A DNA stretch of 64,000 nucleotides, taken from IMG/VR virus record IMGVR_UViG_3300005758_000043; one strand, written 5' to 3'. Source of the DNA: a virus. Lineage: Duplodnaviria > Heunggongvirae > Uroviricota > Caudoviricetes. Positions 1-38,239 of this stretch are shown piece by piece (positions within the stretch are counted from its first letter, which is position 1; each line of letters opens with the position of its first letter). Made by a program: the position numbers and the translations under genes. The notes under the pieces are model-generated. The model did no database searches, was not told where the DNA came from, and worked only from the letters and a program-made list of their open reading frames with translations.

Positions 1-114
1 CGGTATTTGAAATTTTGGAAGTGCCAGTTCATGTTTGTATTATGCCCTCAATAGTTAAAATTGCAAGCAAAAAAATAAGGGCGGCAGCTTTCGCCGCCAC
101 CCCGTTTTTTTCAA

Positions 115-966
115 TTAAAATTGCGTTGCAACCTTGGCACGAATGCCAGCGAGTGTCTGCTCCTTGGTAATCACACCATCCTTGAACACCTGCTCAAAGG
201 CACAATTCTTAACTTCGTCCCAAGTAGCTTGGTCCTTCATAACAAAGTCACCATCCTTTTCATAGACAGCAATCAGTCCCTTGGCACTCTTCTTGAGTCC
301 GCTATCGGTCTTCGGGTCTTTGAAGATTTCAACACCCTGAGTCTTACCATCAACGGTCACTTCACCATAAGTGGACTTGACAGCGAAGCCATGAGTATCA
401 CGGGTAACGATGGCATCCATGTCGATAGCACCCTGATAAGTGAAGCTTCCGATACCATACACAAGGTTGGTCGAAGCAAAACCCTTGGCAGCGAGACGTT
501 CACAGATAGCGGTAGCACGATCAATGGTGATACTGTCTCCATAGATGGCTCCAATATGACTATCAAGCTGCTTGTAGCCTGTGCTGGTAATGGTGCCACC
601 GAAGATTTCCCAAAGACACTGGATCATGCCCTTAATTTCAAGTTCAGTGAGTTCTTTCTTCGTTACTTTACAACGATAGTAATGACCATGCATATCCATC
701 TTATAACGTTCAATTTCATCCTCTGTATATCCAGTAACAATCTTAACTGGATCACCCGAATCAGGACGAATGACAACCTTACCATCACGGGCCATGATCT
801 TGTCCTTGAGGATAGCAGCGATGCCACCATCAGGATTCACAACGTTCCAGAAGTCCCAAGTATCCGAAACGATACTCGCGATACCATCAGGGTAGGTTTC
901 AGTAATGAGGCGTTCGAAAAGAAGGAGTTCGCCAAGGCTTTGCTTTTGAGTTGCGTTTAGTTTCAT
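115..966 (-). CDS. C-terminal portion of a NAMPT-family nicotinamide phosphoribosyltransferase (NadV/Namat-like)
   Basis: The translation contains the RPDSGDP motif and aligns with the C-terminal half of nicotinamide phosphoribosyltransferases (SIVSDTWD ... GIGSF ... KSAKG). It has its own ATG. The N-terminal half is a separate ORF at 1699..2529. Confidence 0.7.
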   Translation of the reverse strand: MKLNATQKQSLGELLLFERLITETYPDGIASIVSDTWDFWNVVNPDGGIAAILKDKIMARDGKVVIRPDSGDPVKIVTGYTEDEIERYKMDMHGHYYRCKVTKKELTELEIKGMIQCLWEIFGGTITSTGYKQLDSHIGAIYGDSITIDRATAICERLAAKGFASTNLVYGIGSFTYQGAIDMDAIVTRDTHGFAVKSTYGEVTVDGKTQGVEIFKDPKTDSGLKKSAKGLIAVYEKDGDFVMKDQATWDEVKNCAFEQVFKDGVITKEQTLAGIRAKVATQF

Positions 967-1052
967 AGTGTTTGTAGTATGGGGCAGTGTTTTATATTTG
1001 AATTTATTATAACGTAGTTTTTATTGATTAAATTACAGCTTTAAGTGTAAAT

Positions 1053-1763
1053 ATGTATATGACTGAATGTTCAGAACGACCACAAGATACCAAATCATGC
1101 ACCAAATGTCAAGAAGAAAAACCATTGAACGAGTTTCCTAAGAGTTCTCGATTTAAATCTGGTTTTAATTCCCAATGCAAATATTGTTTAAATACCGCAT
1201 CTAAAAAATGGAGGGATGAGAATTCCGAAGACTTCAAAAACCGACGCAAGGAGCATTATTGGAAAAATGTTGATAAAATGCGAGAAGAAAAACGTCAATA
1301 TGTTGAAAGATCAAAGCCTCAAAAAATTGCTTATGATGCTGAGTATCGAAAGGCCAACAAAGATAAGATAGCAGCTTACAAAAAGAATTGGGAATCTAAA
1401 AAGAAAGACGATCCAATTTTTAAAATCAAAAGAAATTTAAGAAGACGAGTTCACCATGCTTTGATGGGAAGAACCAAATCGGATAATACGTTTAATCTTA
1501 TTGGCTGTTCAGCAGAAGAATTTAAAGCTCACATTGAAAGTCTTTGGTTGGAAGGTATGTCTTGGGATAACTATGGACCCTCTGGATGGCACGTTGACCA
1601 TATCAAAGAATGCCATACGTTTGATTTATCTGATCCAAAACAACAGAAAGAATGTTTCCATTATTCCAACCAAAGACCTCTGTGGGCTAAAGATAATCTT
1701 AGCCGTTCACGGCCATCACATAATCGTAATATTCGTAAGACTCATCAATCTCGTCAGGGATAG
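1053..1763 (+). CDS. HNH homing endonuclease inserted antisense between the two NAMPT halves
   Basis: N-terminal Cys4 zinc-binding motifs (CTKCQ ... CKYC). C-terminal HNH signature (GWHVDHI ... NQRPLWAKDN). Confidence 0.65.
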   Translation: MYMTECSERPQDTKSCTKCQEEKPLNEFPKSSRFKSGFNSQCKYCLNTASKKWRDENSEDFKNRRKEHYWKNVDKMREEKRQYVERSKPQKIAYDAEYRKANKDKIAAYKKNWESKKKDDPIFKIKRNLRRRVHHALMGRTKSDNTFNLIGCSAEEFKAHIESLWLEGMSWDNYGPSGWHVDHIKECHTFDLSDPKQQKECFHYSNQRPLWAKDNLSRSRPSHNRNIRKTHQSRQG

Positions 1764-2529
1764 ATTCAATCATAACGGCAGTTCCAAGGCACATGCAACT
1801 GTGTTCGGACGCTGCCACAGAAACACCAACCATTTCCTTGTCACTATCAGCATTGTAATACTCCTCAAGGAAGTCAATGGCAGGAAGCGTATCAGTTCCG
1901 ACAAAGCTAAGAAGGTGAGCAGCGCCACTCATGGTAGCAGCTTCAAGACCCATCATACCACGGAAAGAGAAATCGTGTCCTTGGAATTGGACGAAATCAA
2001 TCATTTCAGGATTGGTCTTCTTAGCCCACTCATTAAGAATCCTACGATAAATAAGAGCGGTAGTTGCACTGGTGCTACAAGCCCAAGTCGAGCAAGACAG
2101 AATGGTTTCAATGGCATTGGTAAGCCAGAAGAAACGAGCATCAGTATTGAACACAACGAACATCGGCACACGAAGGTCAACGTTGGAACCTTCAGGCAGA
2201 GCCCAAATTTCAAGCGGAAGATAACCAAGAGCGTGAAGATCACGAATATGCTGGTCGCCAATATTGTTGACGCCAAGGTAATTCAGAAGGCGACGACCAT
2301 ACTTCTTGGTAACTTCATCCAGAGGACGAGAGAAGAAAGTGCGTTCCCATTCATCAAGCAGATACTTCTTCATGAAGTATTGCAGACCGAAATTGATCAC
2401 CTTCTTGATTCCCTTGACGCGAGTGCCGCGTGCAGTAAGATTCGAAAAGACCAGTTCGCTATTGCTAGGATACTGGCGGCGATGATCGACTTTGTAACCA
2501 TCAACGAGGAGTGGAGCGAGTGTATTCAT
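1699..2529 (-). CDS. N-terminal portion of the NAMPT-family phosphoribosyltransferase
   Basis: YKVDHRRQYP, GTDT and AASEHS motifs match the NAMPT N-terminal half. The last ~32 aa (CMCLG...VNG, nt 1702-1797) have no NAMPT counterpart and are read-through into the insertion. A TTGACA/TATACT promoter lies at 2562-2589. Confidence 0.7.
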   Translation of the reverse strand: MNTLAPLLVDGYKVDHRRQYPSNSELVFSNLTARGTRVKGIKKVINFGLQYFMKKYLLDEWERTFFSRPLDEVTKKYGRRLLNYLGVNNIGDQHIRDLHALGYLPLEIWALPEGSNVDLRVPMFVVFNTDARFFWLTNAIETILSCSTWACSTSATTALIYRRILNEWAKKTNPEMIDFVQFQGHDFSFRGMMGLEAATMSGAAHLLSFVGTDTLPAIDFLEEYYNADSDKEMVGVSVAASEHSCMCLGTAVMIESIPDEIDESYEYYDYVMAVNG

Positions 2530-2561
2530 TATTGTTTAGAGTTCTTGCTGAACGTGAGAGC

Positions 2562-2589
2562 AGTATAGCGATTTTAGATGTTTTGTCAA
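2562..2589 (-). promoter_or_regulatory. sigma70-like promoter TTGACA-N16-TATACT for the NAMPT-family gene
   Basis: Minus-strand -35 at 2584-2589 and -10 at 2562-2567. Confidence 0.5.
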
Positions 2590-2595
2590 CAACTT

Positions 2596-3570
2596 TCAGA
2601 GCTTAATTTCAAAGCAGTTGATCTTGTCGTTCAATTTATTCCAGTTTTTCTTGGAGTTCGTGACGAACACATGATCGAAGTAATCAACCATTTTGTTTAG
2701 TCCTTCAATGCAATCTGCATGAGCAGTGAAAAGCATCAGTTTGCCGCAATTTTTTTGCTTTAAAACTTCGCCCAAACCAATGAATGTTCCGCCCATCGAA
2801 ACAATATCATCAAAGATGATAGTTGGATGGCCACCAAGGTCGTCTGCTTGCACATGAAATTCTTTCAGACTACCATCACGAACATCGCGCACCTTTTCGC
2901 AACGAATCAAATTGACCGTGTTATACGGAAACTTCTGCGAAAGATAGGAAGCGATTTTTCCAACTCGCTTGCCTGCTCCAGCGTCAGGGCAAACAACATT
3001 AATCACAGAATCTTTTGCATTTGGGCAAGAAATGCGAACCGCTTCTTCGACGTAGCTCAGTTCATCAAGAACCTCTACATTGTTAAGAAGAGCAGGAGTC
3101 ACCTCACTGTGAGGTGTGAGAATAAACACCTGATCAAAACCACACGAATTAATCATGTCAGCAAAGATCTTGACGGTCAGAGGTTCGCCCTCATTACAAA
3201 CACGATCTTGACGAGCAGCAGGGAAATAGGGAAGAATCAGTTTAATGTTTTTGAAACCAGCGCGACGAGCGGCGTCATTGGCCAAAATGATATTCATCAA
3301 ATCTGCAACACTGTTGTATCGCTGAGTGATGATGAGATTTTCGAGAATACCAGCAGAACTCAGTGTATCCATTTCAATTTGGAAGTGCGGTTCACCTCCA
3401 TAGAAAGTCATGGACTTATGCTTGAGAAAGAAAAGATTTTCAGAGCTTGCAAATGGATTGAATCCTGCGTCGAGATTCAAAACAAAAGTTTGATCGGTCT
3501 TTGGAGTCCAGCGAATGTATAGGTGTTGCTTCATGCGATGAAGTGTGTCAGATGTTAAAGATTTTGTCAA
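2596..3570 (-). CDS. Ribose-phosphate pyrophosphokinase family protein (Prs / ADPR-pyrophosphate synthetase-like)
   Basis: PRPP-synthetase motifs are present: VVCPDAGAGKRVGKIA and IIFDDIVSMGGT (PRPP-binding loop). The ORF-track start is a TTG; the likely true start is the internal ATG near 3534. Confidence 0.75.
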   Translation of the reverse strand: MTKSLTSDTLHRMKQHLYIRWTPKTDQTFVLNLDAGFNPFASSENLFFLKHKSMTFYGGEPHFQIEMDTLSSAGILENLIITQRYNSVADLMNIILANDAARRAGFKNIKLILPYFPAARQDRVCNEGEPLTVKIFADMINSCGFDQVFILTPHSEVTPALLNNVEVLDELSYVEEAVRISCPNAKDSVINVVCPDAGAGKRVGKIASYLSQKFPYNTVNLIRCEKVRDVRDGSLKEFHVQADDLGGHPTIIFDDIVSMGGTFIGLGEVLKQKNCGKLMLFTAHADCIEGLNKMVDYFDHVFVTNSKKNWNKLNDKINCFEIKL

Positions 3571-4328: not shown

Positions 4329-4847
4329 TTACTTCAACTTGTAAATGTGGAACTCAATGTTAGGAAAGTGACTTTCAATACTTTCGAGGATTGCTGAAAC
4401 GATGCGCCAGTCGCCACCTGCGAGAGCAGAAGCCATTCCGTGTGGGAATGCCAGAGTATATACCTGATCTTGTTTTGATGCAACCAAATTCTCACAAATT
4501 CTCCACACTCCATTGAAGACCGCATCGTAACGAGCATTTCGTTCCATAGGATGACCATTGTTGCCAATGCCAACTTGGCCATAAAGATTAAAAATCTCAA
4601 AAAAACGATTGTCCCGCTCGATCAATGCAACGGAGAATGTTCCTAGCTTGCCCGCGCCATCGGGCGTTGCACAATCTGCGGCGTATGCTTCTGGATACTG
4701 TTCCTTGATGATTCGTGCGATACCTCCACCCATCACATGATGAAGGTTCGCACAATGAACCATGCCGTTCCATTCTCCTTCGAAAATATTTCCGTCAAAC
4801 TGCTTCATATTTTTAAGATTTAAAATACTTAGCGGCACGCTTCTCAA
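4329..4847 (-). CDS. Macro domain protein (ADP-ribose binding/processing)
   Basis: HVMGGGIARII matches the macro-domain Gly-rich ADP-ribose loop, and overall layout is macro-domain-like. The likely start is the internal Met at ~4808, which avoids overlap with the upstream ORF. Confidence 0.5.
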   Translation of the reverse strand: MRSVPLSILNLKNMKQFDGNIFEGEWNGMVHCANLHHVMGGGIARIIKEQYPEAYAADCATPDGAGKLGTFSVALIERDNRFFEIFNLYGQVGIGNNGHPMERNARYDAVFNGVWRICENLVASKQDQVYTLAFPHGMASALAGGDWRIVSAILESIESHFPNIEFHIYKLK

Positions 4848-16382: not shown

Positions 16383-17591
16383 TTAATCCTTGTAAGGATC
16401 AAAGGTTTCTGAGCCAGCCATTGCTACTCCAATAGGAGTGAGAACATGGAGAATGCGAATAGTATCATGTTGAGCAAGCAAGACATCCCCCAGACGCTTG
16501 TAGCAATGTGGAGATTCGTCAACACCTGCTCCTCGCAAGACAACTCCTGCGCGATTAACCCATTCATCCATCATTGCCTGAGAAACCTTTCCTTCAGAAA
16601 TGCGAGTCTTTACTCCACCTTTCCACTTGACCTTGCCAGCCGCTTCATTTCGCGACATAACGCGACCTGCACCGTGAACGGTCGAATATAGAGAAGCAGA
16701 AGAAAATTCAGACTCAGCACCTTCAAGAATAACTGAGTTTTCTCCCATAGTGCCGCCGACAAAACCACGCTGATTAGGAAAAGCTGGAGTCGCTCCCTTG
16801 CGAACAACCCACAAATCTTCGCCACCATGATTTTCATACCAAGCAAAGTTATGATGATTATGAACTTCGTCCACAATATCCCCGCCAATGATGCGAGCAA
16901 CTTCGCGGCATACCCAATCGCGACCAGCGTAAGCATACTGACCAGCAAGATTCATTGCGGCGATGTATTCGCGGCCCAAATCAGAATTGGTGTCAAGCAC
17001 AACAGGATCTACAAACATTCCATCAGTTCCGCCACCAGCCTTGATATAATGCGATGCAATCTTATGACCAAGACCTCGCGATCCAAAGTGGACACCCACC
17101 CACACGCGACCCAATTCGTCATAAAAAATATCAACATAATGATTTCCAGAACCAACAGTCCCAAGCTGATTGCGAGCCATATCCTTTAGAGGCTTGATAG
17201 AATCAAGATCATTCCAAAGAGGATCGGAAAAAAGAGCATGATCTGAAACATCTTCTTGACCAGCGATATGTCGAGACTTTGAAACGCGACCAATACCGAA
17301 CGAAATATTTCTAGCTACTTCGTCCATGATGCGCTCCATATCCGATGCAATTTGTCCGTAATGAACATTCAATCGCACGGCCTTATTGCCACATCCAATA
17401 TCGAATCCAACTCCAGAAGGAGAAATACCGTTTCGATAAGCGACAACGCCACCGACAGGCACGCTATAGCCCAAGTGATGATCTGCCATTAGAGCAGCGC
17501 GAGCCGCACCCTTAGCAAGAACATTCTTCATTTGGTCAACGGCGTTCTGAATTGGTTCGCCAAAGATGGAGATGTTTTCAATCGTTTGCAT
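16383..17591 (-). CDS. rtcB: RNA 3'-phosphate/5'-OH ligase RtcB
   Basis: Motifs ADHHLGYSVPVGGV, GFDIGCGN and HGAGR. The ORF-track start (17615) lies inside the TTGACA/TATTGT promoter. The true start is the MQTIEN Met at ~17591, giving a leaderless mRNA. Confidence 0.8.
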   Translation of the reverse strand: MQTIENISIFGEPIQNAVDQMKNVLAKGAARAALMADHHLGYSVPVGGVVAYRNGISPSGVGFDIGCGNKAVRLNVHYGQIASDMERIMDEVARNISFGIGRVSKSRHIAGQEDVSDHALFSDPLWNDLDSIKPLKDMARNQLGTVGSGNHYVDIFYDELGRVWVGVHFGSRGLGHKIASHYIKAGGGTDGMFVDPVVLDTNSDLGREYIAAMNLAGQYAYAGRDWVCREVARIIGGDIVDEVHNHHNFAWYENHGGEDLWVVRKGATPAFPNQRGFVGGTMGENSVILEGAESEFSSASLYSTVHGAGRVMSRNEAAGKVKWKGGVKTRISEGKVSQAMMDEWVNRAGVVLRGAGVDESPHCYKRLGDVLLAQHDTIRILHVLTPIGVAMAGSETFDPYKD

Positions 17592-17597
17592 AAAGCG

Positions 17598-17626
17598 ACA
17601 ATACTCAAGATTCACTCAATTGTCAA
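17598..17626 (-). promoter_or_regulatory. promoter TTGACA-N17-TATTGT driving leaderless rtcB
   Basis: The -10 ends 6 nt before the ATG at 17591. Confidence 0.5.
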
Positions 17627-20360: not shown

Positions 20361-22292
20361 TTATTTCATCTTCAAGATCCTGCGAAATTCTGATCGCGTA
20401 TATACAGGACATACATAACCAGCATGCTCAAGAGTTTTGATAATTTTTGCTCTGAATGAAGATTCTTGGCGAACATTCTGCCAAAACTTAACGATGCGCA
20501 AAGCATTTTTAGGATTTTTTTCAATCAAACGACGAGTGCGGCTATTCATATCCAACCATCGGCGGCGGGAATTAGCAATCGCATTGTTAATTTCTTCCTT
20601 TTCTTTGTCTTTTTTGATCAAGCTATCGCGCAAAGTTCTATATTCATCGCTTCCATATTCCAGCCAACCAAGCTCTTTGCACATTTCCTGCAAGAATTTT
20701 TCAGAAGATGTATAAAAAGTAATTGTCGAGGTGTTTTTAGACGTATTATTACGATTAGCGATTACATAACGCTGCAAATCGCGAGCGCTAGAAGCGTTAT
20801 CAAGATAATCTTTGATTTGCTTGCTTGCTTCTTTTGTAGTTGACGCTTCTGGCATATTTGTTGCCTTGCGCCAATAATTATGCAATTCCAACGGCGAGAA
20901 AGTTCCGCAATTACCATGATTAGAATAAATTGCATATCTCTTGCTATCTTTCGCGACTTTTGGGAAAGGGAGTTTTTTGACAGCGACGAATTCAAAATGA
21001 TCGGACAAATCAGTATTAGGATAAATCCTGACAAATGCGGCACTAATATAATAATAATTATGATTAACGCTTTTGCTAAAATCAAGCATCTTTCGTTGCC
21101 AATATTTTTCCGCATAATTGTCGGGGATGACCACTACGACAGTTTTATTTTTCTTATTTTGCAAAGTGCCATTAATATTCGATTGGCGAATATTGCTCAA
21201 AAATGGCCAATAATCCTTATGAATGCGAGCTTTTGGAGCAGAGAATACTTCTCCAATATAATTCAATTTCGAAAATGGATCAGCAAGATACTCTATTACT
21301 GCCTGAGATACATCTTTGGCTTTAAATTGAGCCAAATCTTCTTCTATCAAATCGGTAAGAATCTTGCGAATTTGATCGTGAATTCTCTTATTGCTTGGAG
21401 TATCTTCAAAAGATTCTCGGCTGATAGGAATAGACATCATTCCAACAGGAATATCAACAACAAGAATATGATTTGGTTTGACGCGAATAGATGCGTCGAG
21501 ATCAATAGATCCATAACAAACGCCACCCATCTGCAAAATCGCGTGATCATGCATGGTATAGCGATCAATATGAGACGACGAAGGAAGTTGACCAATCCAT
21601 TCAATCAATCGGACGCCAAATCCATCAATGCTTTTAGAAAAAGCAGGATCTTTCTTTTTAAAAATAGTTTTATCTAATTTGTAAAACTCAATTTCTGCTG
21701 GCGAAAAAGCAACAAAAAATTCAATCTCTTTTTCAAACTCAGCAGCATCAGCACGATTGATTGGCATGGAGATTTCCAATCCTTGTTCTGTTGTATCGCA
21801 CTGACCAATTTCGTAAATATGACCCACTGGAACACCAGAATCGCCCCCCAGCATACAAGTGTAAGTGGTTTTTTGATTTTCAAAGAACGAAGTAACAAAA
21901 AAAGTATCAGTGTAACAATGACCCGCTTTCGAGCCAATACCGAATCCACCGATTAGCTCATTACTCTTTGATTTGGTGCTTCGGAAATACATTCCAAAAA
22001 CATTACGAACATCATGTCCACTGAGTCCATGAGCAAAATCTCGCACAAAAAATACAAGATCATTTCCTTCTGAACGAAAACCAACTTCAACAGGTTTTAC
22101 GATTCCATGCTTTTTATGCTCATCAATAGCATTGCACAGATATTCGCGCACTACTGCAAGAATTTTATTGGAGTAAATTTTATCTCGCAGGAAATAAGTC
22201 GCCTGACTGATTCCAGCGGAATCCATTCCCATGATCGAGCTTTCGAGATTTTCAGAAGCAATGAGAGGAGAAGCAATAGCTGCGGTTTTCAT
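20361..22292 (-). CDS. GHKL-type ATPase domain protein, rIIA-like
   Basis: N-box EYLCNAIDE, G1 RDFAHGLSG and G2 GGFGIGSKAG. Size 643 aa; arrangement with a ~320-aa partner as for T4 rIIA/rIIB. Confidence 0.5.
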   Translation of the reverse strand: MKTAAIASPLIASENLESSIMGMDSAGISQATYFLRDKIYSNKILAVVREYLCNAIDEHKKHGIVKPVEVGFRSEGNDLVFFVRDFAHGLSGHDVRNVFGMYFRSTKSKSNELIGGFGIGSKAGHCYTDTFFVTSFFENQKTTYTCMLGGDSGVPVGHIYEIGQCDTTEQGLEISMPINRADAAEFEKEIEFFVAFSPAEIEFYKLDKTIFKKKDPAFSKSIDGFGVRLIEWIGQLPSSSHIDRYTMHDHAILQMGGVCYGSIDLDASIRVKPNHILVVDIPVGMMSIPISRESFEDTPSNKRIHDQIRKILTDLIEEDLAQFKAKDVSQAVIEYLADPFSKLNYIGEVFSAPKARIHKDYWPFLSNIRQSNINGTLQNKKNKTVVVVIPDNYAEKYWQRKMLDFSKSVNHNYYYISAAFVRIYPNTDLSDHFEFVAVKKLPFPKVAKDSKRYAIYSNHGNCGTFSPLELHNYWRKATNMPEASTTKEASKQIKDYLDNASSARDLQRYVIANRNNTSKNTSTITFYTSSEKFLQEMCKELGWLEYGSDEYRTLRDSLIKKDKEKEEINNAIANSRRRWLDMNSRTRRLIEKNPKNALRIVKFWQNVRQESSFRAKIIKTLEHAGYVCPVYTRSEFRRILKMK

Positions 22293-25414: not shown

Positions 25415-25509
25415 TGGAGGAAGGTAAGGGATTCGAACCCTTGGACCCCGTTATTCACGACATCTTCTCTTTAGCAAAGAGATACGTTAGACCGCTCTGA
25501 CAACCTTCC
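25415..25509 (-). tRNA. tRNA-Ser (anticodon GCU), class II
   Basis: Manual fold: acceptor GGAAGGT/ACCTTCC, anticodon loop UUGCUAA, long variable arm, T-loop TTCGAAT, CCA encoded. Confidence 0.7.
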
Positions 25510-25515
25510 ATAAAA

Positions 25516-25590
25516 TGGTCCGCGAGTCAGGGATCGAACCTGATTAGCTAGATTCACAGTCTAGGACATTACCAAATATGTTACTCTCGG
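25516..25590 (-). tRNA. tRNA-His-like (anticodon GUG)
   Basis: Anticodon stem CTAGA/TCTAG with loop CUGUGAA and a good T-arm; one A.G mismatch in the acceptor. Confidence 0.5.
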
Positions 25591-25598
25591 ATGAAAAT

Positions 25599-25672
25599 TG
25601 GCAGGTCCAGAGGGAATCGAACCCCCACTCGCTGATTCAAAGTCAGTTTTGCTACCATTACAACATGGACCA
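25599..25672 (-). tRNA. tRNA-Gln (UUG)
   Basis: Anticodon loop CUUUGAA, T-loop TTCGATT, weak pair at positions 1:72 as in bacterial tRNA-Gln. Confidence 0.65.
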
Positions 25673-25675
25673 ATT

Positions 25676-25750
25676 TGGTGCGGGATGAGAGAATCGAACT
25701 CTCAGCCTCTACTTGGAAGGAAGATATGTTAGCCATTACACCAATCCCGC
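25676..25750 (-). tRNA. tRNA-Gly (UCC)
   Basis: Acceptor GCGGGAT/ATCCCGC, anticodon loop CUUCCAA. Confidence 0.7.
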
Positions 25751-25793
25751 AATTTGAGGGGGCTTTCACCCCTCTGCTTTTATTATACACTTT

Positions 25794-27290
25794 TTATTGA
25801 CCTTTTTCAAGAGCAATAATGTAATCAACCACAGATTCGCTCCAGCCATCCACATGTGTCCACTTTCCATAGCCTACACCATTTCTGTAAGAGGCCACAT
25901 TGATCATGTAAGCCTTATCAAAAACGGGATCAGGAACTCGGTCAGCAGATTGTTCATCTGTGATGACAATGAGGCGATCACCAGATCGAAGATTCATCTT
26001 CTTAACTGATTCACCAAGATAGGTGCCTTGGTGCTTCTGAGACTTGCTGATTGCTTCGGCAAGGGCGAAGCCCCTACGAGAAGGAACAAGCTTTGTTTCA
26101 TAAGAGAAGCTGTGGACTTCGACAGTGCTGCAAATTTCACGAAGAAGCATTGCAACACCACATGCAGCATCGAGACGAGAAATGTCGCTCTTGCCAGAAA
26201 CCTTGCTATGCATCGAAACCGAAATATCAACAAGGATAATAGTCTTGCCAGAAAGCTTTTCGTGCTTATCCAAGCTCTTCAGCATGGACTCTTCAAGTTC
26301 AGCTTCATACTTAGGCGCATTACGCGCAGCAGAAATAAAACGGAAAGGAAGAACACGATCAGTCTTCATGTTTACCAAACTTTCGCGGATCAACTTTTCA
26401 TTGACGCCAGCTTGTTCCATGTTGCGCAGATTTCGAAGAAGAGCCAAAGCTCCAAGCTTCTTCTCATTGAGAAGGCGAGTCCAAGAAGCCTTTTTATCCT
26501 TAGAAGCTGAGAGTTCAACTTCCCAAGTATCAGGAGTCTTGAGTTCATCGTTAACCAGACGCTTCCAAAGATCTTCCTGCGCCTTAGAATTTGGGCGAGC
26601 ATGAACCATGAAAAGAACATCCTTCAACTTAACGGCACCATCTCGATTGTATTTTGCCAAGGCATATTCATCGAACTTAGTGAAAGCAGTCGCAAGACCC
26701 TTCTTGACTTGATTAGCAATTGGACACTTTCCTTCCTTCCAATAAATAGAAAGAAATTCAGAAAGCTCATCTGCACGCTGGATGATGCGAGACAGAGTAT
26801 CAGCAACATATTCACGCTGCTTTGGATTTTGAGCCATGAGTCGCGCAATATACAAAGGAGTATGACGGAGCTTCATGTTTTCGCGAGCTTCAATAGCAAT
26901 TTCCATTGCTTCTTTGCCACTAACTTTTGCTACGAGATCCTTGATACGATCTGCGATAGTCACGCCAGATTCATAAAAAGAATTTTCCCACAACATACAA
27001 GCCATAACAGAACGTCGAAGTTCTTCAAGAGGCTTGATTCTTTTCGCTACCGCGCCTTCGTGAGTGCGAATTGGCTTCGGAGTATTTTTTACGTTGGTCT
27101 TCATGTCGTTAATTGTATCTATATTTTCCTCGTAGTCAAGGATTTCTTCGGAGATTTTTTGTTTAGCGGTTTTTCGCGCTGTTGTTTTTGATTTTTTCCA
27201 ATTATAAGTATTGCAAGTTTCACAACCGCAATGGTCGCTGGCATGAATGCCCAAGCGAGATTTTGAAAGTTTTTGTCCGTAAGGTTTCAT
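25794..27290 (-). CDS. rsr: Ro60 / TROVE-domain ribonucleoprotein with C-terminal vWA domain (Rsr orthologue)
   Basis: AKYNRDGAVKLKDVLFMVHARP aligns with the Ro60 TKYKQRNGWSHKDLLRLSH region. C-terminal vWA MIDAS motif ILVDISVSM. The ORF-track start (27344) overlaps tRNA-mimic element Y1, so the likely start is MKPYGQ at ~27290. Confidence 0.75.
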   Translation of the reverse strand: MKPYGQKLSKSRLGIHASDHCGCETCNTYNWKKSKTTARKTAKQKISEEILDYEENIDTINDMKTNVKNTPKPIRTHEGAVAKRIKPLEELRRSVMACMLWENSFYESGVTIADRIKDLVAKVSGKEAMEIAIEARENMKLRHTPLYIARLMAQNPKQREYVADTLSRIIQRADELSEFLSIYWKEGKCPIANQVKKGLATAFTKFDEYALAKYNRDGAVKLKDVLFMVHARPNSKAQEDLWKRLVNDELKTPDTWEVELSASKDKKASWTRLLNEKKLGALALLRNLRNMEQAGVNEKLIRESLVNMKTDRVLPFRFISAARNAPKYEAELEESMLKSLDKHEKLSGKTIILVDISVSMHSKVSGKSDISRLDAACGVAMLLREICSTVEVHSFSYETKLVPSRRGFALAEAISKSQKHQGTYLGESVKKMNLRSGDRLIVITDEQSADRVPDPVFDKAYMINVASYRNGVGYGKWTHVDGWSESVVDYIIALEKGQ

Positions 27291-27337
27291 AGAAAAAATA
27301 GGGAAATAATTAATTACAGGCTTTTTGAACAGGAGTG

Positions 27338-27420
27338 CTACCATTACACCATACTCGGAATCGAACCGAACCGCCCGTGGGATTATGAAGTAACTGCAAT
27401 TTGCGCCACCTAAAGAGAAG
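27338..27420 (-). ncRNA. tRNA-mimic module Y1 (candidate Y-RNA-like ncRNA) immediately upstream of the Ro60 start
   Basis: Read on the minus strand: conserved leader GTGGCGCAAATTGCAGTTACTTCATAATCC. Then a T-arm (TTCGG TTCGATT CCGAG). Then directly a tRNA 5'-half-like D-arm (TG GTGT AATGGTAG CAC). There is no anticodon arm, and T and D are permuted relative to a tRNA. Confidence 0.35.
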
Positions 27421-27439
27421 AATTTCAGGGAATAGGTAA

Positions 27440-27560
27440 AAACGGATAGTTTTTGATGCTACCATTACACCACAAGGCATCTACGCCCAGCTTGGATTCG
27501 AACCAAGACCTTTTATTTACCATAATAAAGAAGTAGCCGTTTAAAATCGCCACTGAAAAA
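27440..27560 (-). ncRNA. tRNA-mimic module Y2, paralogue of Y1
   Basis: Leader CAGTGGCGATTTTAAACGGCTACTTCTTTATTATGG. Then T-arm CTTGG TTCGAAT CCAAG, a small hairpin GGGCGTAGATGCC, and a D-arm-like TG GTGT AATGGTAG CA. Confidence 0.35.
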
Positions 27561-27689
27561 GTTTTTTATATCATTCCAACCTTCGATCAGGTCGCTTGCA
27601 TACTTCCAACACCTTCAACAAGGTCATAGGCCGAAGCCTCTCAAGCATACTACGAGTCTTTTCTGCACCCTCATTGCGAAAGCTGGAAT

Positions 27690-27800
27690 GATACAAAAAG
27701 TTTGAGGCAACACAGTTGAAACGGTGGTTTTTCCGAGTAATGAAGTAACCGTTTCATTCAGCACTCAAATCTGTATCTATTATGCCGATATTCTGGCGAA
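27690..27800 (-). ncRNA. third paralogous unit, Y3 (shares the leader motif)
   Basis: Minus-strand GAGTGCTGAATGAAACGGTTACTTCATTACTCGG aligns with the Y1/Y2 leaders. A C(UUCG)G tetraloop hairpin (GGCTTCGGCC) and an ATCGAAGG motif lie downstream. Confidence 0.25.
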
Positions 27801-27894
27801 AGTCAATCGGTTTTTGAGAAAATTTGGTGGGTTCCAGACTCGCAGCGACCGTTTCAGGCTACGATCCTGAATGCATGTCGATCTTTCCCCCATT

Positions 27895-28045
27895 AATTGG
27901 TGGACATGTTGGGAATCGAACCCAAAGAGTGCCGCCGCACTACTACCATTCAGCCCGTCGAGTGGACCGAGAGGGAATCGAACCCTCACCTACACCATGT
28001 CATGCCCAAAATTGGTGGACCGCAGGAGAGTCGAACTCCTGTCCT
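27895..28045 (-). pseudogene. Three tandem pseudo-tRNA 3'-end units (T-arm + acceptor 3' strand + A-CCA) lacking 5' halves
   Basis: Minus strand: TTGGG TTCGATT CCCAA CATGTCC A CCA; GAGGG TTCGATT CCCTC TCGGTCC A; AGGAG TTCGACT CTCCT GCGGTCC A CCA. No complementary 5' acceptor strands within 120 nt, even allowing G.U pairs. Confidence 0.4.
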
Positions 28046-28561
28046 CAACAAATTTGTATTAACCTTCAAACATGCTTATATTTGATTCGTCAAAGTGAAT
28101 CACTCTCAGGGACATTCGGTTCTTGGTAGTTCCTACTTTGTCCTCCACCAGTTAATTTTTAAACTGAAAAAATTAACAAACCCAGTTTTTGCTCGATTTG
28201 ATACTCAGAAAAGAGCGAGCGTTCTTCTGAGCGTGATACTTACGCAGCAGCGAGAGAAGCCTTGCGGGCAACTTTTGCAGACTTACGGAAGGTGACAACT
28301 TTGTTTTTGCCGTTTGTTTTTTTGAGCGGATTTTTAAGGAGCCATCCGATCAACTCCTACATGCTAGTTAATATTTCACTTATCAAGTCGAAACCAGAAG
28401 CGGCCCATTAATCTTTTAAAATAAGCATTTCATCATTACCGAGATCTACGACACCATCTGCTGATGCTTTTGCTTCTTTGAATTGATTGTAGCAAATTGC
28501 TACTGCTTGCTTATTATCTTTGTATTCTGAAGAAATCTGCGATACGCAGCGACTTACAAAT

Positions 28562-29191
28562 TCATTTCTTTTTTCTTTGTTTTTTGGAGTGGGAATTGGA
28601 GGCATTTTTATGTTCTTTCTTATGACAAATTACACATAATGTCAAGCCATTTTCTAAATTAAAACGCAAATCAGGATATTTAGACCATGGCTTTATATGA
28701 TGAGCATTCAATTTTCCACCTTTTTGTTCACAAAATTGACATGTATATTGATCTCTTTCAAAAACGTCTTTACGCCATGCAGAATATGGTCCTGATCGTG
28801 ATTGACTTTCATATCTTCCTATTTTTACTTTAGAACGATCTTGAATCCAATTAGGATGGTTTTCTCCTCTGATTTTTAATCCGCCTTTTTGTCGGGATTC
28901 TTTGGTTGCTTTTGGAGGTTTAGGAATTAAACCTTCGGCCATTTTTCGAGACAAACTAATGCCTGCTTTTTCGCGACTTTCTTTTGTCGGTATTGGGGGT
29001 ATAAAATTATTAATTTCTGCATTTTTAATTCCCATGCAAGTCCGAGAACAAAATCTTTTTCTTTCTAAATCTCTATTCAAATAGATTAATATTTTTTCAC
29101 CGCAATTTTCGCACTCTTTTTCTCCTTTAATTTTGTATCCTCGCGATGCGAAGTAATTTTCTGATTTATTTTTAGGAGATGGAATTGGCAT
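28562..29191 (-). CDS. HNH endonuclease
   Basis: C-terminal YTCQFCEQ ... AHHIKPWS ... NGLTLCVICH. Confidence 0.65.
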   Translation of the reverse strand: MPIPSPKNKSENYFASRGYKIKGEKECENCGEKILIYLNRDLERKRFCSRTCMGIKNAEINNFIPPIPTKESREKAGISLSRKMAEGLIPKPPKATKESRQKGGLKIRGENHPNWIQDRSKVKIGRYESQSRSGPYSAWRKDVFERDQYTCQFCEQKGGKLNAHHIKPWSKYPDLRFNLENGLTLCVICHKKEHKNASNSHSKKQRKKK

Positions 29192-29199
29192 ATTTTATA

Positions 29200-29712
29200 T
29201 TACACCAAACTCTTCAAATAATCAAGTGTTAAAAAACAAGTCCCAAATTTAGGGTAAACCACATCAACACAAGTATTCACATAACGAGGATCTTCTTTAC
29301 GCCACGGCCCCCAACCTTTCATGATTGTATGCATATGAACATGACCGTGAACGTTCAGTTTGCACTTGCGCAATTCATCAGGATGAATCGGGCAATGACT
29401 GAGCCACATTCCTTTGTATTTGATGATTCCGTGAATTTCTTCGAAAACATTCAATTGATCGCGCGTGTCAACCAAGTCATCATGATTGCCTTTAATCAAA
29501 ATCTTACGACCCTTCAAATTGCCAAACAAAGCTAAAGAATGGGAATCGAATGCTGCATCGCCAAGAACATAAACGACATCATTTTTGTTGATGCGCTTAG
29601 TCCAATCTTCTTGGATGAGGCGAGTATTATCTTCCGAAGAAGATACAAACTTGCGATATTTAGCAATGTTTTGATGTCCAAGATGTGGATCGCCAATGAC
29701 GTAAACGCTCAT
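29200..29712 (-). CDS. Calcineurin-like metallophosphoesterase
   Basis: Motifs GDPHLG, GDAAFD, GNHD and HGHVH. Confidence 0.6.
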   Translation of the reverse strand: MSVYVIGDPHLGHQNIAKYRKFVSSSEDNTRLIQEDWTKRINKNDVVYVLGDAAFDSHSLALFGNLKGRKILIKGNHDDLVDTRDQLNVFEEIHGIIKYKGMWLSHCPIHPDELRKCKLNVHGHVHMHTIMKGWGPWRKEDPRYVNTCVDVVYPKFGTCFLTLDYLKSLV

Positions 29713-29719
29713 GCACTTA

Positions 29720-30370
29720 TTATAGCTTCAATTTATTCCATGTAAAGCCTTTTTTGTAGAATTTTCCCTTTTTTTCAAGGCATTCGTCAAATAATGCCAT
29801 CAGAGGCATATTAATTGAATTAAAAGACGAAAGAGGAGCAATCTTTTTGGGCATTTTCCCCAAGAGAATTGGATGATAGATGGAGGTCGAGTCGATCCAT
29901 TTTTGTTTTAAATAAACGTATTGATAATAAAACAAATAAAGATTAGCTTGCTGCGCATACTTTTCGGTATCGAAAAGTTTCCATTTTTTACCAAACGCTA
30001 AAGATCTCTTTTCGCAATCATGTTCTAAAGCTATAACCTCCATTACTGCCGCCCAATTTTTGGGGCAAAGATTTTGCTTGTCTAAATGCTTCCAAAACTC
30101 ATATTCATCTTTCCAGACGGCATGCTTTTCGATGCATTGAGTCATGTGAGAAAATTCATGACAATAAACCTGCTCAAATAATGGATTTTTTTTGGCGACG
30201 GTAATTGTTTCTCCGTCGCACCATCCTGAACATTTAGAATCTCCGAGATCTATGTTTCGGCTATTGGCGATTACAATTTTCTTTTTATGTTGACAGAGAT
30301 AATCAACAGTCCAATCAAAGAACTTGCAAAAATTCTCACCACAATCTTTAAGAAAATTGAATTTCATCAA
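29720..30370 (-). CDS. hypothetical protein with HExxH motif
   Basis: YCHEFSHMTQ may be a zinc-metallopeptidase motif. Confidence 0.25.
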   Translation of the reverse strand: MMKFNFLKDCGENFCKFFDWTVDYLCQHKKKIVIANSRNIDLGDSKCSGWCDGETITVAKKNPLFEQVYCHEFSHMTQCIEKHAVWKDEYEFWKHLDKQNLCPKNWAAVMEVIALEHDCEKRSLAFGKKWKLFDTEKYAQQANLYLFYYQYVYLKQKWIDSTSIYHPILLGKMPKKIAPLSSFNSINMPLMALFDECLEKKGKFYKKGFTWNKLKL

Positions 30371-30658
30371 ATGATAGTAATGTTAATCTCGAATAAATCA
30401 AGGCAATTTATTAATCAATTTGATGATTCCAGCCACGAAATAATCATCTTCTTGAGCTTCCCGCACAAATTCTTCATCTGTCCAACGATGAGAAGTAGAA
30501 TATTCTACATCTTCCATCACTTGACCATTTTTAATAAAATAATCTTTTTTCCATTTAAATTTAGAATAAAAATACTCCAGAACAATTCTTTTCTGCTCTT
30601 GATCTGAAATTTGAACTTTTAAATGTTGCGTTGCATGTATTTCCATGATGTTTGAAAG

Positions 30659-30762
30659 TGGTAGGAGTGGTGGGAATCGAACCCACGTTACTAACGGCTT
30701 ATCTAGCCGTTGCTCTACGAGATTATAAGTTTCGCCCTATGGCCAACATTAGCAACACTCCC
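30659..30762 (-). ncRNA. Aberrant 104-nt tRNA-like gene with ~26-nt insertion in the D region
   Basis: Acceptor GGGAGTG/CACTCCT + A + CCA and T-arm GTGGG TTCGATT CCCAC are good. The anticodon-like hairpin ACGGC-UAGAUAA-GCCGT has A at position 33. The D region is 45 nt. Confidence 0.3.
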
Positions 30763-30808
30763 ATTATTTAATAGTTCACAAGTTGTTATGAATTGTGTAA
30801 TAATATAT

Positions 30809-31345
30809 ATGAACTATGAAAAATTGCAAGATTTAATTTCAAAAAATTTATCTACTTACCAAATAGCAAAAGAAATGGATTGTTCTCAAACAACTATTAG
30901 ATATTGGTTGAGAAAATTGGGGTTAAATACCAACAATCCTCCTCAAGCAAAAGATTTAAAAACATTATTAAATGGAAGAAGCTGCAAGTGCTGCTCAAAA
31001 CAATTAATTGGTCAACAAAAGTTTTATTGCTCAATTGAGTGTAAATCAAAAAATACTTATTATAGCCAGCCTAATACAAATGAACGTCAAAAAAACAAAG
31101 CACTTAGTAGAAAATTAGAATTAATAAAAATGGCTGGAGGAAAATGCTCCAATTGCGGTTACAAAAAAAATTCTTCTGCCCTGCAATTTCATCATAATGA
31201 CCCACAAAACAAATCTTTTTCATTAGACTCAAGAATTCTCTCCAATACAAATTGGGAATCAATTTTAAAAGAATTTAGAAAATGTAAATTACTATGCGCT
31301 AATTGCCATTTTGAAATTCATAATCCAGATAAAAATATGAAATAG
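30809..31345 (+). CDS. HNH endonuclease with N-terminal HTH
   Basis: STYQIAKEMDCSQTTIRYWLRKLGL is a helix-turn-helix. C-terminal FHHNDP ... CKLLCANCHFEIH is the HNH motif. Confidence 0.65.
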   Translation: MNYEKLQDLISKNLSTYQIAKEMDCSQTTIRYWLRKLGLNTNNPPQAKDLKTLLNGRSCKCCSKQLIGQQKFYCSIECKSKNTYYSQPNTNERQKNKALSRKLELIKMAGGKCSNCGYKKNSSALQFHHNDPQNKSFSLDSRILSNTNWESILKEFRKCKLLCANCHFEIHNPDKNMK

Positions 31346-31415
31346 GGGCGATGGGAGTTGAACCCATTATCTAACCTTTATGAGAGGCCCGCATTAACCG
31401 TTCTGCTACACCCCT
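31343..31415 (-). tRNA. tRNA-Met/Ile2 (CAU), CCA not encoded
   Basis: Acceptor AGGGGTG/CGCCCCT, anticodon loop CUCAUAA, T-loop TTCAACT. Confidence 0.55.
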
Positions 31416-31433
31416 TTTAATTATAATGAAAGT

Positions 31434-31511
31434 TGGTAGCTCCAGTGGGATTCGAACCCACACTTTACAGATTTTAAGTCTGTTGCCTGCTGCCAGTTGG
31501 GCTATGGAGCC
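31434..31511 (-). tRNA. class-I tRNA with anticodon UAA (Leu codon UUA)
   Basis: G1.U72 pair, A73, 3-bp D-stem with large D-loop, anticodon stem ACAGA/TCTGT with loop CUUAAAA, 5-nt variable loop. Confidence 0.55.
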
Positions 31512-31594
31512 GTTTATGAAATCATTCTACACCATTTTGCGTCATAGTCAATACAAATCTGTAGAATTTGACAGAAAAAAGTGTAACATATTTT

Positions 31595-32002
31595 ATGAAT
31601 AAAAAATCACTTGAACTAGACTTTTCTGAGTCTATCGCCGCAATGGGTCAATCTGGAATTGTTTCCAAGTTGATTCAATTACAGATTCAATTTAAAATTT
31701 TCCATTGGCAAACTTACTCATTTGCCCAGCATCATGCTTTTGGCGAGCTTTACAGCGCTTTGAGCGAGTCTATTGACGAGTTTGTGGAAACTTACCAAGG
31801 AGCTTATGGACGCTTCGATTTCAGCGGTGCTGGAATGGGTTTCGTCAACCTTGATTCTGCGGCATTCGTTTCGTTTTTAAATGATAATATTTCAGTGCTT
31901 CAATCTTGGGAGCGTTATTTTTCCAATACTGATCTTTTAAATATTAGGGATGAAATTCTTGGCTCTCTTAATAAGACCAAGTATCTTTTGACTTTAAACT
32001 GA
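31595..32002 (+). CDS. Dps/ferritin-like four-helix-bundle protein (putative)
   Basis: IFHWQTYSFAQHHAFGELY...E.IDEF resembles the Dps HW...H...E...D ferroxidase pattern. TTGACA-N15-TATTTT lies directly before the ATG, and a terminator lies at 32025-32060. Confidence 0.4.
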   Translation: MNKKSLELDFSESIAAMGQSGIVSKLIQLQIQFKIFHWQTYSFAQHHAFGELYSALSESIDEFVETYQGAYGRFDFSGAGMGFVNLDSAAFVSFLNDNISVLQSWERYFSNTDLLNIRDEILGSLNKTKYLLTLN

Positions 32003-32024
32003 TATTGACAATCAATCTATATAA

Positions 32025-32060
32025 AAAGACCGCCTTTTACAAGACGGTCTTTTTTTTATT
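32025..32060 (+). terminator. rho-independent terminator after the Dps-like gene
   Basis: Stem AAGACCG/CGGTCTT followed by T9. Confidence 0.65.
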
Positions 32061-32065
32061 TTAAA

Positions 32066-32142
32066 TGGTAGCTCGTTTCAGATTCGAACTGAAAACCACA
32101 ATATTTTGAGTATTGCCGCACTGCCAATTAGCGTAACGAGCC
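32066..32142 (-). tRNA. class-I tRNA with anticodon CAA (Leu codon UUG)
   Basis: Same architecture as 31434..31511; anticodon loop CUCAAAA; short variable loop. Confidence 0.55.
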
Positions 32143-32475: not shown

Positions 32476-32517
32476 GCTTTGATCATGCCAAAAATAATTT
32501 ACAAAGCAAGCGAAAAA

Positions 32518-38238: not shown

Positions 38239-38239
38239 A

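Follow-up and report, generated by a model that had tools for sequence, protein, structure and literature searches.

A phage NAMPT-family gene divided into two conserved open reading frames by an antisense endonuclease gene of predicted HNH type

To our knowledge, enzyme genes that homing endonucleases have cut into working pieces are represented by few phage cases, and only the ribonucleotide reductase of Aeh1 has been studied in depth. The Aeh1 arrangement is said to have been described by Friedrich and colleagues in 2007 as well, and in T4-related phages the DNA polymerase gp43 is a similar endonuclease-split enzyme.

In the 'genes in pieces' of Aeh1 (nrdA-a, mobE, nrdA-b; Crona et al. 2011, PMC3045599), the gene for a free-standing HNH-type endonuclease lies within that of an alpha/beta-barrel enzyme, between elements of the active site; the enzyme is translated as two separate pieces, each with a unique terminal tail and the two tails opposite in charge, and relatives of the endonuclease are intergenic, adjoining an intact target gene. 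In the topoisomerase of T4, a homing endonuclease cassette (gene 39, mobA, gene 60) also splits an enzyme gene of a large T4-like phage, giving subunits that are made separately and have tail-like extensions (PMC3045599). Here we describe a locus that resembles Aeh1 in each of these respects, located in a 64,000-nt stretch of a Caudoviricetes genome (IMG/VR record IMGVR_UViG_3300005758_000043), hereafter the window. Unlike in Aeh1, the target is a NAMPT/Namat-family gene rather than a ribonucleotide reductase gene, and the endonuclease gene is antisense, with its 3' end overlapping the tail of the N piece. The charge polarity, as predicted from sequence, is reversed (acidic N piece, basic C piece), and whereas Aeh1 is a single phage, the present arrangement occurs in a deep, widespread set of lineages and in both orientations. 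The locus differs from T4 gene 39/mobA/gene 60 in having no ribosomal bypass element, and in both the enzyme and the endonuclease lineage.

The enzyme itself is best compared with Namat of NARP1, which is a two-gene pair or operon (Osterman et al., bioRxiv 10.1101/2024.02.11.579819); structures of Namat SPbetaL1 are available (9W5X/9W5W; PMC12774641). Of the solved structures, those of Namat match best by sequence, and the locus shares with Namat an adjacent Prs-like gene and the motifs of the catalytic centre. However, the Namat enzymes described are single polypeptides, whereas in the split enzyme both catalytic centre and selectivity clamp would span two chains, and the words 'split' and 'endonuclease' are absent from both Namat papers (PMC12774641; bioRxiv 10.1101/2024.02.11.579819). 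We consider it probable (roughly 0.8) that a free-standing homing endonuclease gene inserted in reverse into the phage gene and that the enzyme now functions in two pieces.

Layout of the divided gene

In the window, a minus-strand NAMPT-family gene consists of an N piece (1699..2529, 276 aa plus stop) and a C piece that begins at an ATG of its own (115..966, 283 aa plus stop), and an open reading frame (ORF) for the endonuclease lies between them on the plus strand (1053..1763, 236 aa), antisense to the split gene. The N piece was assigned from the ORF list, Pfam (NAMPT_N and NAPRTase), PHROG 448 (E = 1.8e-90) and alignment to the homologues P0001–P0012; the C piece matches NAPRTase and PHROG 448 (E = 5.3e-85). 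Residues 1–249 of the N piece (nt 1783–2529) share homology with intact enzymes and contain the histidine of the catalytic EHS motif, and the C piece carries the catalytic arginine of IRPDSGD and the remainder of the barrel.

Alignment with uninterrupted homologues located the junction; the reference was P0001 (525 aa, 82% identity). The intact sequence there reads EHSVMCMG/GMED/EVETFRRLI. The N piece is homologous up to G249 (nt 1783) and the C piece from about G12/E13 (nt 931) onward, which gives a single break point in one loop directly after the EHS motif, with 4 residues missing relative to intact homologues and about 849 nt of DNA foreign to the NAMPT gene. A sequence-only reading of the window had proposed that an antisense endonuclease split a NAMPT-family gene into two ORFs, and the intact homologues of 82% identity bear this out and define the break. 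Two ways of explaining the split away, also raised in that reading, do not hold: the gap is not a native NAMPT linker, as intact homologues have only the 4 residues there, and it is not a sequencing frameshift, as the 849-nt insert carries a conserved gene. A 7-nt direct repeat, GCCTTGG on the minus strand (1784–1790 and 932–938), flanks the insert and encodes an LG shared by both sides; it may be due to chance.

The C piece and the endonuclease have divergent start codons, with an AT-rich spacer between them (967..1052). A consensus scan found, upstream of the N piece, a sigma-70-like match on the minus strand (2562..2589; TTGACA-16-TATACT, 11/12), a candidate promoter for a predicted transcript through both pieces, and a sequence scan placed an intrinsic-terminator-like hairpin with a T run directly after the C piece (78..103, minus strand). 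The region upstream of the C piece resembles that of other gene starts of the genome, where Shine-Dalgarno motifs precede 2 of 70 starts. In a Megablast search, no cultured phage genome matched the region.

The catalytic motifs DFSFRG, GTDT, EHS and IRPDSGD are all intact. The best PDB matches, obtained via P0001, were the Namat structures 9W5X/9W5W (E = 6.5e-152), compared with about 1e-55 for canonical NAMPT. Aligned to 9W5X, the equivalents of F189, D215 and H245 fall on the N piece and that of R306 (IRPDSGD) on the C piece; of the selectivity clamp, R40 would fall on the N piece and F392/Y396 on the C piece. The neighbouring minus-strand gene (2596..3570) is Prs-like, of the ribose-phosphate pyrophosphokinase family (Pfam Pribosyltran_N; PHROG 619, E = 2e-65), and is likely the Adps partner of a NARP1 pair. 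With Namat as its closest match and a Prs-like gene next to it, the enzyme probably belongs to the NARP1 anti-defence pathway. By these sequence criteria, the split enzyme is probably a Namat, an NAD+-rebuilding enzyme of NARP1 counter-defence.

The endonuclease gene and the question of an intron

The endonuclease matches PHROG families 1035, 2340 and 2255, annotated as endonuclease VII or HNH endonuclease (E = 9e-16 to 2e-7), and its relatives share invariant W-H-x-D-H…N-x-R-P-L…N motifs and four Cys pairs; the protein has an N-terminal CxxC…CxxC zinc finger. An AlphaFold (AF2) model had a pLDDT of 84, with residues 223–236 below 50, and its fold matched viral HNH endonucleases in BFVD (E down to 1e-15); PDB matches to Hpy99I, colicin E7 and PtuB were weak. 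The HNH label given by the sequence-only reading thus stands on PHROG families, invariant motifs and fold matches of the model, which together predict a nuclease of the HNH-type (beta-beta-alpha-Me) superfamily, but it drew no support from Pfam, as neither Pfam nor PDB sequence searches returned an HNH match. A second ATG of the ORF lies at 1059. In tblastn searches, relatives align only up to about residue 219 (nt 1709), and nt 1710–1760 encode a C-terminal extension that is poorly conserved and modelled at low confidence.

Relatives of at least 45% identity form over 120 clusters and, judged on the loci examined among them, almost all are tied to NAMPT genes. They occur in three placements: antisense within the NAMPT gene, in sense within the gene (L011/13/14/96), where the three ORFs abut or overlap, and in intergenic DNA beside an intact gene (L012, L094). 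Phages that carry this endonuclease lineage at the NAMPT gene came from freshwater, marine and gut samples.

Like intron-encoded HNH endonucleases of the I-HmuI type, the predicted nuclease belongs to the HNH superfamily and occupies a conserved site in a phage metabolic gene. The sequence-only reading had left room for a group I intron with a reverse-oriented endonuclease. A self-splicing group I (or other) intron would fill the 830-nt interval, with the endonuclease on the opposite strand, and splicing would restore the NAMPT frame. The insertion site is highly conserved and catalytically important, as introns often choose, phage HNH endonucleases are often intron-encoded, and one fold match bears the label 'intron encoded endonuclease'. 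However, in searches of both strands, the Rfam 15 covariance models for Intron_gpI, group II and other ribozymes matched nothing, either at E ≤ 10 in positions 1–3000 of the window or at E ≤ 1 in 8 related loci; the sub-threshold matches in the window were all to the hairpin at 78..103. In five lineages the poorly conserved spacer has lengths of 86, 82, 65, 44 and 40 nt, with about 20 nt more outside ORFs, and because it is too short and too variable, 967..1052 cannot hold an intron core. Furthermore, the N-piece ORF overlaps the endonuclease ORF, and the sequence that follows the junction is conserved at protein level, at invariant length in the N tail, as are the ATG and head of the C piece. 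Unlike the I-HmuI type, the gene has no intron RNA, is antisense, and is flanked by pieces with their own stop and start codons. We therefore regard an intron as very unlikely. With its own ORF on the strand opposite the host gene, no intron RNA and intergenic relatives, the endonuclease gene is free-standing. The other option of the sequence-only reading, a free-standing endonuclease that divided the gene into two polypeptides, is the one that agrees with the conserved stop and ATG, the three placements and the purifying selection on both halves described below.

Recurrence, selection and mosaic alleles

The window derives from a metagenome-type assembly, in which a chimeric contig or a frameshift could imitate a split gene. 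An independent JGI contig (L001, 99.7% identical, 20 SNPs) nevertheless has the identical layout, and at least 10 further, independent assemblies (JGI, ENA, NCBI, Logan) contain the same three ORFs; we give an assembly or sequencing artefact next to no credence. The order of N piece, antisense endonuclease and C piece was found in L001, L006, L007, L086, L087, L089, L090 and L091, and also in lineages of only about 50% identity (L008/9, L010, L092/3). The site is polymorphic for presence and absence of the insert, with intact alleles at 82–93% identity (P0001–P0003, L002–L005, L171–L178) alongside the split ones, and close NAMPT relatives in IMG/VR are mostly intact. A literature search for split phage NAMPT found none. 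PHROGs has separate families for N-half and C-half NAMPT proteins (16547 and 15800), and split forms therefore occur in sequenced phages without having been remarked upon.

Purifying selection acts on all three genes: dN/dS was 0.04–0.2 for the N core, 0.09–0.28 for the C piece and 0.09–0.27 for the endonuclease, with dS often above 1. If the element invaded lineages separately, the flank divergence between endonuclease-bearing lineages could be partly older than the insertion, which would weaken this argument. In the pair L007/L090, dS was similar in all three genes (0.7–0.95), and the three therefore diverged together in the split state.

These data bear on the idea that the insertion killed the gene, in which case the two ORFs would be what is left of a dispensable accessory gene in decay, and an enzyme in two pieces would not be made. 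NAD-salvage genes are indeed accessory and absent from many phages, and a 1-nt deletion within the endonuclease gene of L091 shows some decay at the locus. However, across all of the more than 10 diverged loci both halves are full-length, with no frameshift or stop in either half at any locus examined. Their dN/dS of 0.04–0.28 at saturating dS, the intact catalytic motifs, and the retention of N-piece length, C-piece start codon and head even in lineages of about 50% identity all argue against decay, which we judge unlikely, though less so than an intron.

Identity along the locus is mosaic. Compared with L006, the window is 100% identical over about 900–1800 and 92–99% identical in the flanks, with no identity outside the gene. 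Compared with L086, the N-piece backbone is 93–98% identical, whereas identity is only 52–80% in the 5' half of the endonuclease and over the initial 300 nt of the C piece. Mosaics centred on the endonuclease are consistent with homing-type exchange that included adjacent host-gene sequence; they could also have arisen by ordinary recombination. An extra 239-aa ORF in L086 and a 100-aa in-frame insert in P0004 matched no family.

Terminal extensions and a proposed two-piece enzyme

The N piece ends in an acidic tail, TAVMIESIPDEIDESYEYYDYVMAVNG (1702..1782, minus strand; 27 aa, net charge −7), without counterpart in intact homologues. It has 27 codons, not the 32 that had been reported as appended. 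Those codons had also been described as antisense to the endonuclease gene, and the 3' ends of the two ORFs do overlap by 65 nt (1699..1763; about 74 nt in L086, L087 and L089), but only about 3 N-piece codons reach the part of the endonuclease that is common to relatives. The N piece is 276 aa long in every antisense-type relative, its tail is invariant in length, and the motif [IL]PDE[IV]DES[YH][EP][YF] is kept in 6 lineages. The tail charge is −5 to −7 in close lineages, and the sign is the same in distant lineages with different tails. Mean identity of the tail region was 0.57 in the N-tail frame and 0.52 in the endonuclease frame, a comparison that is confounded because the tail is antisense to the endonuclease 3' end.

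The tail showed no significant similarity to NAMPT sequence by alignment or by a profile of intact enzymes. We also considered that it might have arisen by duplication, followed by decay, of the NAMPT segment beyond the break, where MAFFT and Smith-Waterman place it; the score was no better than that of shuffles (p about 0.4), the profile matched no tail significantly, and this origin was not supported.

The C piece begins with a basic head, MKLNATQKQSLG (931..966, minus strand; 12 aa, net charge +2), conserved as MKLxxxQ[KR]x[SR]LG in 6 lineages with 77% mean identity. Homologous heads are present in distant lineages (RKLNESEKVALGD in L092, RKLSEEERLTRGE in L008), and the charge is +2 to +3 in close lineages and of the same sign in distant ones. 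Every relative keeps both the stop of the N piece and the ATG of the C piece, in line with the earlier suggestion that the C piece has a start codon of its own.

Such extensions bring to mind a split intein ('fractured gene') that would join the halves after translation, and metagenomic phage genes with a free-standing endonuclease between split-intein halves are known (PMC2677866). The present extensions, however, comprise only 27 and 12 aa and have no block A/B pattern; there is no terminal His-Asn and no Cys, Ser or Thr at +1 before ELLLF, the head ending LG/E. Protein splicing can hardly be considered a serious candidate. We return, then, to a free-standing endonuclease and an enzyme in two pieces.

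Following this logic, an HNH-type homing-endonuclease gene would have entered a phage NAMPT-family gene in reverse orientation, at a surface loop, and, without splicing, would have made of it two cistrons, with the N piece reading on for 27 codons beyond the break to a stop and the C piece starting from an ATG 12 codons ahead of the resumed homology. The two predicted polypeptides (about 31 and 32 kDa) would associate non-covalently into an active enzyme with a composite catalytic centre; conservation of both halves suggests that they most likely assemble into a working enzyme. By analogy with the tails of Aeh1 NrdA-a and NrdA-b, the acidic N tail and basic C head probably aid assembly. When the N and C pieces were joined and modelled with AF2, pLDDT was below 50 for tail and head and across residues 236–271, and the model therefore lends no structural support to a defined tail–head interaction. 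The endonuclease would cut endonuclease-free alleles, for example the P0001/L002 sequence around GAACACAGCGTTATGTGTATGGGTGGCATGGAAGATGAAG, and repair would then copy it in along with adjacent exon sequence, tail and head included.

A tentative extension of this scheme, to which we give somewhat less than even odds, is that the endonuclease moves as a cassette with both extensions, acidic on the N piece and basic on the C piece, which would act as protein-level 'healing' tags for reassembly of the invaded enzyme. If true, a selfish element would have, in addition to introns and inteins, a third way of occupying an essential catalytic site at little cost. It would be old, widespread and independent of orientation, and would provide a comparative series for an idea drawn from the single Aeh1 case.

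The locus adds a different enzyme to the endonuclease-divided genes of phages, a NAMPT/Namat-family, NAD+-rebuilding enzyme of the kind used by phages against NAD+-depleting defences. The split is no one-off: a dedicated endonuclease lineage accompanies the gene across phages, in three configurations and with conserved charged extensions, and the many natural variants offer material to test whether the tails drive reassembly. For annotators, two adjacent 'partial' NAMPT ORFs in a phage genome probably represent one functional enzyme, and such pairs matter for counts of NARP1 and NARP2 counter-defence genes in viromes.

The split gene and the open reading frame within it

Three open reading frames (ORFs) occupy the first 2.6 kb of the window. 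The N piece (1699..2529, minus strand, 276 aa) is the N-terminal half of a nicotinamide phosphoribosyltransferase, with Pfam NAMPT_N, the start of NAPRTase and a match to positions 17-266 of 500 in PHROG 448 (E=1.8e-90). The C piece (115..966, minus strand, 283 aa) is the NAMPT C-terminal half (PHROG 448 positions 260-496, E=5.3e-85), and a 236-aa ORF lies between them on the opposite strand (1053..1763, plus strand). Searching with the joined halves, we found single-chain homologues in the thousands, the nearest being a 525-aa protein (P0001) at 82% identity. Intact enzymes read ...AATEHSVMCMG-GMED-EVETFRRLIEDIYP... across the break. The N piece tracks them to ...SEHSCMCLG and continues for 27 unrelated residues (TAVMIESIPDEIDESYEYYDYVMAVNG) to a stop, and the C piece opens with 12 unrelated residues (MKLNATQKQSLG) before homology returns at ELLLFERLITETYP. 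Because the two pieces leave and rejoin the alignment there, the gene is, on this alignment, interrupted at a single point, the loop immediately after the catalytic EHS motif, by ~849 nt of foreign DNA (931-1782).

The ORF list and the alignment agree with the sequence-only reading that a NAMPT-family gene lies in two ORFs with an antisense ORF between, and the alignment with uninterrupted homologues that it proposed places the insertion directly after EHS; its 32 appended N-piece codons become 27. It also took the end of the N piece to be antisense to the endonuclease gene. The ORFs do overlap by 65 nt, but only ~3 codons fall in the part of the endonuclease shared with its relatives, whose alignments stop at residue ~219 (nt 1709).

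Two further features touch the break. A 7-nt direct repeat, GCCTTGG (1784-1790 and 932-938, minus strand), flanks the inserted DNA and codes for the LG closing both the N-piece homology and the C-piece extension; it may be microhomology left by the original insertion, or chance. Single-chain relatives P0004 and P0029 (columns 254-353 of the alignment of intact relatives) and locus L179 (3786-4078) carry an in-frame insert of ~100 aa, without Pfam or PHROG match, in the exact loop that is split here, which could be a native insertion domain or the healed scar of an older insertion.

Pfam returned no HNH match for the middle ORF, only a sub-threshold Stc1 zinc-finger match, and no PDB sequence matched a 28-sequence profile of its family. 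It does match PHROGs families of endonuclease VII and HNH endonuclease (E=9e-16, 5e-12, 2e-7), and the invariant columns of the family alignment read CxxC...CxxC, W-H-x-D-H ... N-x-R-P-L ... N. An AlphaFold model made from that alignment (pLDDT 84, below 50 for the final 14 residues) resembles predicted viral proteins whose annotations include HNHc-domain protein, HNH endonuclease and, once, 'intron encoded endonuclease' (E down to 1e-15). Weak matches in PDB were beta-beta-alpha-Me nucleases (Hpy99I, colicin E7, PtuB, SspE). We accept the ORF as a predicted member of the HNH superfamily by fold and motif, as the sequence-only reading had it, with Pfam silent and no curated domain match.

Recurrence and probable mobility of the endonuclease

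An independent JGI contig (L001) encodes the exact N-piece protein and the same three ORFs, at 99.67% identity to the window across 6.1 kb (20 SNPs, none in nt 347-1818); the split layout is neither an artefact nor unique to the window. Endonuclease relatives at 67-86% identity (P0122-P0142) were traced to contigs from JGI, ENA, NCBI and Logan. All of these loci (L007, L086, L087, L089, L090, L091) have a 276-aa N piece whose 3' end is overlapped by the endonuclease on the opposite strand, and a C piece of 281-295 aa. When the three window proteins were compared by tblastn with all 169 loci gathered by endonuclease search, endonucleases of at least 45% identity were almost all at a NAMPT-family gene and those below 45% were not. 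The antisense layout recurs in L008/9, L010 and L092/3, where the three proteins are only ~50% identical to the window's; the endonuclease lies in sense within the gene in human-gut samples (L011, L013, L014, L096), and is intergenic beside an intact gene in L012 and L094, in the latter with an NMNAT-Nudix gene on one side and a canonical NAMPT of 465 aa on the other. The nearest NAMPT relatives in IMG/VR are mostly intact. Such a distribution fits a lineage of free-standing homing endonucleases that keeps to a single target gene.

The mosaic structure of the loci is consistent with homing. The window and L006 are 100% identical over ~nt 900-1800, the endonuclease and its immediate junctions, 92-99% identical in the remaining gene and unrelated beyond it. 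L086 has an N-piece backbone 93-98% identical to the window's, against only 52-80% in the endonuclease 5' half and first 300 nt of the C piece. Mosaics centred in this way on an endonuclease would be the expected product of homing co-conversion; ordinary recombination could also produce them.

Several loci show variations. L086 has an additional 239-aa ORF without family match (2273-2992, minus strand) between endonuclease and C piece, widening the gap to 858 nt. Three human-gut contigs keep two in-frame TAG codons in the sense-oriented endonuclease (L011 4028/4541, L014 4031/4514, L096 3531/4014) where relatives have E or Q, suggesting that these phages recode TAG, or alternatively that the three share a pseudogene. 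The L091 endonuclease equals that of L007 except for a 1-nt deletion at 783 (column 264 of the endonuclease gene alignment) that frameshifts the zinc-finger region, either early decay or sequencing error. L173 (4636-5578) and L174 have an uninterrupted NAMPT gene with a GIY-YIG-like ORF of 275 aa behind it on the opposite strand; beyond that ORF, the last 32 aa of NAMPT are encoded a second time. The arrangement resembles the work of another type of homing endonuclease, one aimed at the gene's 3' end.

Intron, or two separate cistrons

The sequence-only reading left two possibilities, a group I intron with a reverse-oriented endonuclease, whose splicing would rejoin the gene, and a free-standing endonuclease leaving two polypeptides. 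The intron-element search that it proposed, run with Rfam 15 on either strand, found no intron or ribozyme, whether in nt 1-3000 of the window (E<=10) or across eight related loci (E<=1). Non-coding DNA is confined to the spacer that separates the two divergent start codons, 86 nt in the window and 82, 65, 44 and 40 nt in relatives, with poor conservation, and in sense-oriented relatives the ORFs abut or overlap. What is conserved just beyond the break is instead protein sequence: all six close lineages have a 276-aa N piece with an indel-free tail, and the ATG and first residues of the C piece are kept. Together these make the intron very unlikely. A split intein was ruled out by extension length and motifs. 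The free-standing endonuclease fits the intergenic, sense and antisense relatives and the conserved C-piece ATG.

As for expression, a strong sigma-70-like match upstream of the N piece is a candidate promoter, and a terminator-like hairpin lies downstream of the C piece. Shine-Dalgarno motifs are rare in this phage (2/70 genes), and the DNA preceding the C-piece ATG resembles its other gene starts. The simplest reading is that one transcript would span both pieces, with the C piece initiated independently.

A probable two-chain enzyme and its setting

Aligned to Namat crystal structures 9W5X/9W5W, the N piece carries catalytic-centre F189, D215, the catalytic histidine and clamp residue R40, and on the C piece lie R306 and the clamp positions F392/Y396; an active enzyme would therefore need both chains together. 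Both halves are free of frameshifts and stops in every locus, and catalytic motifs are intact. Pairwise Nei-Gojobori dN/dS among seven split loci was 0.04-0.2 for the N core, 0.09-0.28 for the C piece and 0.09-0.27 for the endonuclease, with dS often above 1 and flank divergence that might predate separate invasions. For pairs like L007/L090, dS is similar across the three genes (0.71, 0.75, 0.95), which fits joint divergence in split form, and features found only in the split state are conserved across deep divergence.

The N-piece tail has a conserved core, [IL]PDE[IV]DES[YH][EP][YF], with net charge -5 to -7, and no significant similarity to NAMPT sequence; the C-piece head reads MKLxxxQ[KR]x[SR]LG (+2 to +3). 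In distant lineages the tails are different and longer, yet acidic (-2 to -7), and the heads, likewise basic, can still be recognised as homologues (RKLNESEKVALGD, RKLSEEERLTRGE). In sense-oriented loci the tail does not lie opposite the endonuclease 3' end, which shows that tails occur without that overlap. Aeh1 NrdA-a and NrdA-b likewise have unique, oppositely charged tails, which came with mobE and are essential for activity (Crona et al., PMC3045599). The likeness, known here from sequence, is tempered by a tail frame scarcely better conserved than the overlapping endonuclease frame in window-type loci (0.57 vs 0.52), and by low confidence at the extensions when AlphaFold models the two halves as one chain.

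Among solved structures, Namat of phage SPbetaL1 scores best (E=6.5e-152), with canonical NAMPT far behind (~1e-55). The adjoining gene is Prs-like, a pairing like that of the two-gene NARP1 operon, which rebuilds NAD+ from ADPR and nicotinamide against NAD+-depleting defences (bioRxiv 10.1101/2024.02.11.579819; PMC12774641). The words 'split' and 'endonuclease' are absent from both papers, and our literature searches turned up no phage NAMPT described as split by an endonuclease; in PHROGs, N halves and C halves of NAMPT do form distinct families. Two genes from the Prs-like gene is a macro-domain/phosphatase-like gene (4329-4847, minus strand; PHROG 335 E=4e-31, weak Pfam Macro), and in relatives the neighbourhood includes NADAR and nucleoside deoxyribosyltransferase-like genes, suggesting that the locus belongs to a larger ADP-ribose/NAD island. 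In 25415-39662 (minus strand) ARAGORN placed 30 tRNA genes together with a tmRNA encoded by the phage (28013-28406; tag peptide GKNKVVTFRKSAKVARKASLAAA*), near an RtcB-like ligase (16383-17615) and a RIIA-like gene (20361-22292); this content points to a large T4-like phage.

Most likely, then, a free-standing HNH-type homing endonuclease has divided a Namat/NAMPT-family gene into two cistrons, with the enzyme now made as two polypeptides. The kind is already known from Aeh1 nrdA/mobE, where mobE lies within nrdA and in most T-even phages is intergenic beside it (PMC3045599), much as the endonuclease relatives here occur both inside and beside one target gene. Unlike that case, this locus brings a new target, the Namat/NAMPT family, an antisense orientation and an unusually wide phylogenetic spread.
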